The translations under genes and the position numbers were made by a program. A stretch of 36,347 nucleotides of DNA, from the NCBI GenBank assembly GCA_029856435.1, contig JAHQXB010000158.1:1-36347 (forward strand), read 5' to 3'. This DNA comes from Candidatus Jordarchaeia archaeon. Its GTDB lineage: Archaea; Asgardarchaeota; Jordiarchaeia; Jordiarchaeales; Jordiarchaeaceae. Shown in pieces: positions 9,008 to 10,268 of this stretch. The notes under the pieces are model-generated. The model was given only the letters and a program-made list of their open reading frames with translations, did no database searches and was not told where the DNA came from. The stretch's first letter is position 1. Every line of letters begins with the position of its first letter.

Positions 9008-9479
9008 CACATCCACTACAAACAAAAAACTATGATATCCAAGCTGACTAGAAGTAAAACAACTCTGTAGAAACAAAATTTTTTTGGCAACAATTCACAT
9101 CGCAACTAGTCATAATGTTCCTCTTGCATATACTGATACCGAGAAACAATTCGAATAAAAATGACCTTCAGAAAGCATAGAATTCCAATCTAACCACTTG
9201 TTAGTACCCTCTTTTTAGTATTCTTTCACATTCTCGCGACTTAGCTTTCATACCAACGCTTTCGTATAGAAAAATGATGCTATACAAATACGACAGCGAT
9301 AATCTGTTCTATCTGGGTAGTACTAATGACCTAAGCCCATACCATAATCTTCCACCTTGATGTGGTGTTAAAACTGCTTCTATTTAGAATAAAGCTTGTT
9401 AACTTCCAACAGTTAACGTTAAAGAAAAACCATTAAATCCATCATTCCCTTAAAAACAAACATACACATAACATGTTGT

Positions 9480-9681
9480 GCAGCCAATTCCGGCAAAGCC
9501 CGGAATGTGGGGTTGAAGTTCGAAAAAGCCCAAAAGAGGGCATGGCCACAATTGGGAACATCCTCCCACCGAAAGCAAGGGAGATGTGCCTGCTTCAACC
9601 GTTCCCCAAGCGAGGCCCCCATGAAACCGGTGGAGGAAGACCCAAAGTTACGCGAGGTTAACGCTGGGTCAGAACGGTTGC
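9480..9681 (+). ncRNA. Unidentified ~200-nt structured RNA candidate
   Basis: GC-rich island with many complementary segments: 9488-93/9500-05, 9511-18/9593-600, 9528-31/9538-41, 9558-67/9579-87, 9639-44/9665-70 and end pairing 9480-85/9676-81. G-U pairing and a GCGA tetraloop favour the + strand. Confidence 0.5.
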
Positions 9682-9713
9682 TCTTTGTATAATTTATAGT
9701 TTAAAAAAAGGAT

Positions 9714-9817
9714 TGGTAGCCCGGCGCAGATTCGAATTCCGCGGCCACCAATAGTGTGGTTGCACTGCGGTCAAAGGGTCCAAAGCCCTCTATGCTTGTC
9801 CGCTACACCACCGGGCT
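9714..9817 (-). tRNA. tRNA-Gln(UUG), CCA-encoded, with a 28-nt intron at 53/54
   Basis: Acceptor AGCCCGG/CCGGGCT+ACCA, anticodon arm GAGGG-CTTTGGA-CCCTT, T arm CGCAG|TTCGAAT-CTGCG after intron removal gives 76 nt. Confidence 0.95.
9737..9764 (-). other. Non-canonical tRNA intron (T-arm, 53/54) with BHB motif
   Basis: UGA-CCGC-AG|U...CC-GCGG-AA|U-UCG: 4-bp central helix CCGC/GCGG, two 3-nt bulges, cuts after the 2nd bulge nucleotide reconstitute the T arm. Confidence 0.92.
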
Positions 9818-9925: not shown

Positions 9926-10140
9926 TTAATCTTCTTCTATGGTAATTGCTGAATAGTCGCATTGGATTTCGCATGCCCTGCAAACTAGGCACTCGTCTTC
10001 AGATACTACCTTTGCTAAATTTTTTTCAAGTTTGTACACTTCTGCGGGGCAGATTTTTACGCGGTAAGGCTGGTGCCTTATTCCTCTACGCACACCCCAC
10101 AGCCGACGCACTTGTTTTTGTCAACCTTTATTTTCACCAT
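9926..10140 (-). CDS. 2[4Fe-4S] ferredoxin, split: exon1 10140-10086, exon2 10056-9926 (61 aa after splicing)
   Basis: Spliced product MVKIKVDKNKCVGCGVCVEICPAEVYKLEKNLAKVVSEDECLVCRACEIQCDYSAITIEED has two CxxCxxCxxxC motifs. GAGGAG RBS precedes ATG 10140. The unspliced frame stops at codon 21. Confidence 0.9.
10057..10085 (-). other. Candidate BHB (tRNA-type) intron in a protein-coding gene, 29 nt
   Basis: U-GCGU-AG|A-GG-AA-UAAGGC-ACCA-GCCUUA-CC-GCGU-AA|A-A. Removal gives the in-frame junction GTA G|AA ATC TGC CCC (V-E-I-C-P). Confidence 0.85.
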
Positions 10141-10268
10141 TTTCTGGGGCTCCTCATATACTGTTTCATTAACAGTCGGAAGACTTACTGGTTTGTTCTT
10201 TGTTTTAATATACTTTGGCTAAAGTGTTTTGTACTCTCAAAATGGATATTTGAGAATTATTTGCGCCT

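Follow-up and report, generated by a model that had tools for sequence, protein, structure and literature searches.

We examined a minus-strand locus within a window of 36,347 nt (the whole stretch of DNA analyzed) from Candidatus Jordarchaeia archaeon (contig JAHQXB010000158.1), which is contig C89 of a 3.54-Mb, 97.8%-complete genome (G000) in 181 contigs. The locus holds the two parts of a putative small ferredoxin gene, separated by a 29-nt insert. Specifically, the ATG at 10140 opens a frame reading MVKIKVDKNKCVGCGVCVEE, which runs into a TAA (10080-10078) after 20 codons, inside the first iron-sulfur cluster motif, and the remainder of the ferredoxin (ICPAEVY...CLVCRACEIQC...IEED) lies in a different frame and ends at the TAA at 9928-9926. 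An earlier note on this DNA had described the same interruption, and direct reading bears it out. A Shine-Dalgarno-like GAGGAG (10150..10155, minus strand) is located 9 nt upstream of the ATG, and its GAGG core is kept in all aligned versions of the locus. Conventional gene calling emits only a spurious 61-aa open reading frame (ORF) with a GTG start, which covers the second part of the gene.

Excision of 10085..10057 joins GUAG^AAAUC (^ marks a cut or junction) and yields a 61-aa product, CVGCGVCVEICP, with one CxxCxxCxxxCP and one CxxCxxCxxxC motif. Removal of exactly these 29 nt had been proposed in the earlier note, and it corresponds to a cut after the second nucleotide of each bulge of the RNA fold described below. 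On this model, exon 1 (55 nt; 10086..10140, minus strand) encodes Met1-Val18, including Cys11, Cys14, and Cys17, and contributes the first base of the Glu19 codon. The putative intron (29 nt, phase 1; 10057..10085, minus strand) falls inside codon 19 and contains a hairpin as well as the in-frame TAA at 10080-10078. Exon 2 (131 nt; 9926..10056, minus strand) supplies the last two bases of Glu19, Ile20-Asp61, and the stop codon TAA, and carries Cys21 and the second CxxCxxCxxxC; it is open and conserved in every version compared. The predicted spliced junction runs from ...UGCGUAG to AAAUCUGCC in the G000 type and from ...UGCGUAA to AAAUUUGCC in the type found in genome G005.

Only the joined product reads as a complete ferredoxin. 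In it, the Fer4 domain (PF00037) spans the junction at residues 4-25 (E-value 1.9e-11; 43.7 bits against a cut-off of 21.1), and the dicluster models Fer4_7/Fer4_9 match essentially end to end (PF12838, 39.6 bits; PF13187, 32.0 bits; cut-offs of 27). Each exon alone gives a truncated Pfam match, with exon 1 covering positions 1-16 of the 24-position Fer4 profile. The two CxxCxxCxxxC(P) motifs, the scores above the cut-offs, and the invariance of all eight cysteines are those of a 2x[4Fe-4S] ferredoxin, and these sequence features make it highly probable that the gene encodes such a protein, of 61 aa, after intron removal.

The RNA around the insert can fold into a bulge-helix-bulge (BHB) structure. 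Its central helix pairs GCGU in exon 1 (10088..10091, minus strand) with GCGU at 10062-10059 through two G-C and two G-U pairs. On the 5′ side, a 3-nt bulge AGA (10087-10085) follows, with the predicted cut after 10086; on the 3′ side, the helix strand and the bulge AAA (10058-10056) together occupy 10056..10062 (minus strand), with the predicted cut after 10057. The intron itself forms a hairpin composed of GG/CC (10084-10083 with 10064-10063) and UAAGGC/GCCUUA (10080-10075 with 10070-10065), closed by the loop ACCA. An exon-exon helix pairs 10093-10102 with 10042..10051 (minus strand), setting the codons for Cys-Gly-Val against those for Cys-Pro-Ala. All of the elements that the earlier note had named are located where it placed them. 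The exon-exon helix amounts to 10 bp rather than 9 when G10093-U10051 is counted, and one correction concerns the 3-nt AAA bulge, which requires an alternative register. RNAfold recovers this architecture from a 73-nt piece (-27.7 kcal/mol, z -2.46, a stability reached by 2 of 200 shuffles) and again from the 255-nt transcript, where the centroid fold shows it as well as the minimum-energy fold. The modeled motif is canonical in its 5′ half and relaxed in its 3′ half. Specifically, GCGU followed by a 3-nt bulge appears in the minimum-energy folds of all four sequence versions (AGA, or AAA in G005), and both flanking helices are present, with h′ comprising GG/CC and a 4-6-bp stem, and h comprising 1 bp, a 3-nt bulge, and then 10 bp. 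This geometry, counted as four central pairs with at least two G-C, two inner pairs, and one outer pair, occurs at a frequency of 2.9e-4 among all combinations of position and length (28-30 nt) in the genome; with ~10 alternative 29-nt placements that keep the motif spacing, the chance of meeting it here is ~3e-3, before conservation is counted.

The ortholog alignment suggested by the earlier note places an insert at the identical site in four congeners with syntenic loci, and a pattern scan found a further version on a 427-kb metagenome contig (L046). The 29-nt version is identical in G000, G003, G004, L015, L017, and L047, while G002, G005, and L046 carry three different 28-nt versions; at least eight independent assemblies thus contain the insert, in four distinct, diverged sequence versions. 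All versions have an in-frame stop inside the insert, and in all four the bulge cut rule yields a joined coding sequence. The decisive evidence comes from the exons: the joined coding sequences show a dN/dS of 0.06-0.25 (dS from 0.41 to saturation), no indels in the exons, and no change in any of the eight cysteines. Exon 2 therefore stands in differing genomic frames (29 versus 28 nt) and yet is conserved as coding sequence. This difference in length rules out a fixed frameshift, and no account other than excision of the insert fits every version. Next to this coding evidence, the RNA fold is conserved as well. The four versions fold independently into a common shape with the central helix, the 3-nt 5′ bulge, the intron hairpin, and the exon-exon helix, and standard pairs fill 93% of the pair cells across versions, versus 36-48% with slid partners (100% for the central helix and 96% for the exon-exon helix). 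Changes between versions include one compensatory pair, a G-C to A-U replacement in the intron stem of the 28-nt versions, which also have a shorter loop, and three one-sided changes that preserve pairing; in G002 and L046, a U -> C substitution in the 3′ strand of the central helix turns a G-U pair into G-C.

Two other accounts of the insert were rejected. The GCGTA that flanks the insert in G000 resembles a target-site duplication, but it does not flank the insert in G002 or L046, nor the other introns described below; the repeat arises because the central helix is nearly palindromic. In G005, the five open codons upstream of exon 2 contain no start codon, and translation of exon 2 on its own was rejected for this reason. 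Beyond the genus, the Trm112-like neighbor gene was found without the ferredoxin beside it. In the sister family, small ferredoxins without an interruption, candidate orthologs at best, share 36-45% identity with exon 2; the intron may have been gained or lost.

Taken together, these data argue that the insert is a BHB-type intron that needs removal from the mRNA and is very probably spliced. Several observations weigh against this conclusion. First, minimum-energy folding extends the central helix by a fifth pair (U10092-A10058) and leaves a 6-nt 3′ bulge, and a strict 3-nt AAA bulge requires the alternative register, in which a lone U10092-A10055 pair sits between two 3-nt bulges. Second, covariation is weak with four distinct versions, the observed score being reached in 60 of 500 shuffles. 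Third, a search of 400 Asgard genomes for an intron-less allele carrying the predicted junction gave none, so the junction has no confirmation by precise loss. Fourth, a search of a 5.8-billion-cluster protein collection with the joined product did not find a protein of the spliced type, and hence no assembled spliced transcript is on record; this query matched the exon-2 ORF and two ferredoxins (41% identical), and the mis-called exon-2 ORF, used as a query, matched only itself. In the mechanism that we propose, codons around Cys14-Val16 would pair with those around Cys21-Ala23 in the pre-mRNA, so that the 4-bp GCGU/GCGU helix forms between two 3-nt bulges, one per strand. A heteromeric (alpha-beta)2 endonuclease would then cut after the second bulge nucleotide on both sides, and RtcB would join the exons at GUAG^AAAUC, restoring CVGCGVCVEICP. 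From the sequence, we infer the cleavage, the ligation, and the exact position of the 3′ cut.

The genome encodes the enzymes that such a mechanism would require. Two PF01974 endonuclease genes are present (ORFs L001:1178-1756 and L002:1195-1788), one with the Tyr/His/Lys motifs and one without the His, which may be read as alpha and beta subunits and fits an (alpha-beta)2 enzyme with an L1 loop. Asgard archaea have been reported to possess an (alpha-beta)2 endonuclease with an L1 loop and broad substrate specificity, and enzymes of this type accept relaxed motifs (PMC5829648). RtcB is encoded as well (PF01139; E-value 5e-174). As for tRNA genes, ARAGORN detects no more than 6 genome-wide, even with its intron option. 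In a genome that is 97.8% complete, almost every tRNA gene must then have an interruption at a non-canonical site. This count agrees with a report that 92-95% of Freyarchaeia tRNA genes bear introns, often at non-canonical positions (PMC11291895). In the window, ARAGORN and Rfam gave no match to a tRNA or an Rfam family, a silence that reflects interrupted genes and not their absence. One such gene, a tRNA-Gln(UUG) at 9714-9817 (minus strand), is invisible to both tools until 9764..9737 (28 nt) are excised, whereupon ARAGORN calls it. Its intron lies between positions 53 and 54 (T arm), ~290 nt downstream of the ferredoxin intron. The borders, CCGC ag^U and GCGG aa^U, follow the cut rule of the ferredoxin intron, and in both introns the outer helix adjoining the 3′ bulge is short. 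The 3′ ends of the two introns, CCGCGGAA in the tRNA-Gln gene and CCGCGUAA in the ferredoxin gene, also resemble each other. Between tRNA-Gln and the next gene lies a G+C-rich island of ~200-250 nt (window ~9440-9690), with no Rfam match up to an E-value of 1, which possibly encodes a structured RNA that is interrupted or belongs to no known class.

Equivalent putative introns occur in other protein-coding genes of the same genome. In rtcB (G000:C93:1547-1576, minus strand; L025), an in-frame insert of 30 nt, with CCCG ac^A and CGGG aa^G at its borders, carries a TGA that sits inside the RtcB Pfam match, and its excision restores LPD^AHQGYGFPIGG. The ligase needed for such splicing is thus itself encoded by an interrupted gene. 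In cbf5 (G000:C73:22783-22813, minus strand; L052:1284-1314), a 31-nt intron splits the codon of the catalytic Asp (GHAGTL^D^PKVTG), with a DKCLD match upstream and TruB_N, TruB_C_2, and PUA matches downstream; its fold, CACU ag^A ... AGUG aa^A, is of textbook form, with AGA and AAA bulges as in the ferredoxin gene. The crenarchaeal cbf5 intron likewise disrupts the codon of a catalytic residue (PMC2738675). Two further 30-nt inserts lie ~1.5 kb apart on one contig, in ahcY (G000:C81:48230-48259, plus strand; TGGG aa^A...CCCA aa^t; one TAA within the Pfam match) and in tyrS (G000:C81:49794-49823, plus strand; CTGG at^A...CCAG aa^t; two TAG and one TAA within the Pfam match). Finally, an HdrC-like dicluster gene (G000:C49:341-370, plus strand; L051) is interrupted within the second of its cluster motifs (CTTCYTCQE^RCP) by a 30-nt intron that starts with TAG. 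Compared with the intron site in the ferredoxin motif, this one is shifted by two bases; codons of the 4Fe-4S motif may be favored as a landing or retention site for introns. Adjacent to the 3′ bulge, the introns of rtcB, ahcY, and tyrS form just one or two outer pairs; the relaxed 3′ side of the ferredoxin motif is therefore typical of these mRNA introns, with that of cbf5 being canonical.

The genome-wide scan for BHB motifs that the earlier note had recommended was of mixed value. Although it surfaced the cbf5 and HdrC-like introns, the combination of motif and ORF joining gave ~10,000 matches, equal to the numbers for decoy geometries, and has no discriminating power alone. Adding the bulge rule (A-N^N, A-A^N), a length of 26-34 nt, and exons of at least 200 nt on both sides reduced the output to 14 matches versus 1-7 in decoys, but the decoys are imperfectly matched and the bulge rule is post hoc, so that these matches are leads only, five of them checked individually, and do not amount to a census. 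Further candidate mRNA introns with clean hairpins and plausible junction peptides are located at C136:1412 (-), C24:15039 (-), C119:4421 (-), and C180:23719 (-), and candidate junction peptides among the scan matches include VHICG^THEQTI and VDPAYG^KYHFDGHR.

Next, we weighed other explanations for the interrupted frame. The one that survives best, while still improbable, accepts that the intron is real and adds that it serves as a regulatory switch, with output set by the activity of the endonuclease and RtcB or by conditional folding of the motif. As translation of the unspliced mRNA would end after 20 aa, output must be limited by the efficiency of splicing. An alternative conserved fold was not seen among the folds of the four versions or in that of the 255-nt transcript. 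The equivalent introns in rtcB, cbf5, ahcY, tyrS, and nearly all tRNA genes suggest general tolerance and not gene-specific control, and because this intron class is found in unrelated housekeeping genes and nearly all tRNA genes, constitutive removal of a tolerated passenger fits better than a switch. On this analysis, the ferredoxin intron is most likely such a passenger and not a regulator. The proposal of a BHB intron spliced by the tRNA endonuclease and RtcB, as first put forward in the earlier note, is thus strongly supported by the comparative evidence, by the presence of both enzymes, and by the like introns elsewhere, but its extension to a post-transcriptional switch finds no support.

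Splicing need not be the only way to restore the cluster motif, since a ribosome could skip the insert by translational bypassing of the T4 gene 60 type, with peptidyl-tRNA-Val taking off at GUA 10089-10087 and landing at GUA 10060-10058, 29 nt downstream. The product (...CVKICP..., versus VEICP by splicing) would also contain the cluster motif, and with GCGUA at both borders in G000 and G005, matched codons exist there with a hairpin between them. In G002 and L046, however, the 3′ border reads GCGCA and offers no matching landing codon, yet the exons are equally conserved. Moreover, the codon after the take-off site is not a stop, and equivalent inserts are present in tRNA genes of the same genome, where translation is irrelevant. 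To our knowledge, translational bypassing has not been described in archaea, and we regard it as a very improbable explanation here.

Slightly less plausible again is a pseudogene, or a sequencing or assembly artefact that inserted 29 nt. On conventional reading the gene is indeed broken, and only the spurious exon-2 ORF is called. An assembly artefact had been named in the earlier note as an outcome that would undo its claim, and it did not materialize, given the recurrence of the insert across independent assemblies and sequence versions; the low dN/dS, maintained at a dS of ~1, together with the intact exon lengths and cysteines, is incompatible with neutral decay. The least credible explanation is programmed ribosomal frameshifting through the insert, which would place ~10 extra residues between Cys17 and Cys21: although G000 has an open exon-2 frame reaching back to 10111, so that a -1 shift might in theory connect it with the exon-1 frame, the 28-nt versions would need +1 instead, the exon-2 frame of G005 is open only 5 codons upstream (a 47-aa open frame), no slippery site is conserved across versions, and the product breaks the CxxCxxCxxxCP spacing, which Pfam recognizes only after exact removal of the insert.

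We therefore return to splicing of a BHB-type intron as the preferred interpretation. Genus-wide conservation of the ferredoxin intron and the like introns in rtcB, cbf5, ahcY, tyrS, and the HdrC-like gene point to mRNA splicing by the tRNA machinery as a common process in a close relative of eukaryotes. We lean toward the broader view that dozens of mRNAs, including those of cbf5 and rtcB, are routinely spliced by the tRNA endonuclease and RtcB in Jordarchaeia/Freyarchaeia, with introns spreading between tRNA and protein genes. If this is true, this Asgard lineage would be the first prokaryote whose genes are routinely expressed by way of mRNA splicing. Genes of this kind are skipped or cut short by standard gene callers, and because the true ferredoxin is missed by them and absent from the protein collection, metabolic reconstructions of these lineages under-count genes.

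The closest known system is cbf5 of Crenarchaeota, which, as the earlier note had stated, is the best-known case of BHB introns in protein-coding genes and has been described as the only confirmed archaeal pre-mRNA splicing, with other cases predicted but never confirmed (PMC2738675). Those introns measure 16-44 bp and occur in Desulfurococcales and Sulfolobales (PMC2738675). Like them, the ferredoxin intron is a short, ORF-less, BHB-type intron in a coding sequence that interrupts an essential motif, and such introns often break the frame (PMC2738675); removal by a heteromeric tRNA-splicing endonuclease and a ligase, as proposed here, would be a further likeness, and both are mistaken for frameshifts or missed by annotation. 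The two differ in gene (a small ferredoxin) and lineage (Asgard), and splicing of cbf5 was demonstrated experimentally, whereas here it is read from sequence. In addition, the ferredoxin intron is one of many in a genome that has a cbf5 intron of its own. With the tRNA introns of Freyarchaeia/Atabeyarchaeia, it shares lineage, size class, and motif geometry (PMC11291895; bioRxiv 10.64898/2026.10.13.758758), but the introns of those two studies are in tRNA only and the host here is an mRNA. The text of bioRxiv 10.64898/2026.10.13.758758 does not mention mRNA, cbf5, or ferredoxin, and uses "protein-coding" only for synteny neighbors. Literature searches combining Asgard with bulge-helix-bulge, cbf5, or pre-mRNA found only work focused on tRNA and rRNA. 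The ferredoxin intron is thus a new gene and a new lineage for a known intron mechanism, and part of a larger set.

Two more distant systems offer partial parallels. An mRNA of Haloferax volcanii reportedly carries a BHB intron in its 5′ untranslated region, which makes it, too, an endonuclease substrate in an mRNA, but there the intron lies outside the coding sequence and its removal does not restore a frame. In eukaryotes, Ire1 and RtcB splice HAC1/XBP1 mRNA. The role of RtcB in Ire1-type mRNA splicing is noted in a passage of PMC8718801. As would be the case for the ferredoxin intron, a short, frame-changing mRNA intron is removed from HAC1/XBP1 by an endonuclease and RtcB independently of the spliceosome; however, the eukaryotic event is regulated and employs the unrelated Ire1 and a different stem-loop motif, and the comparison implies no homology.
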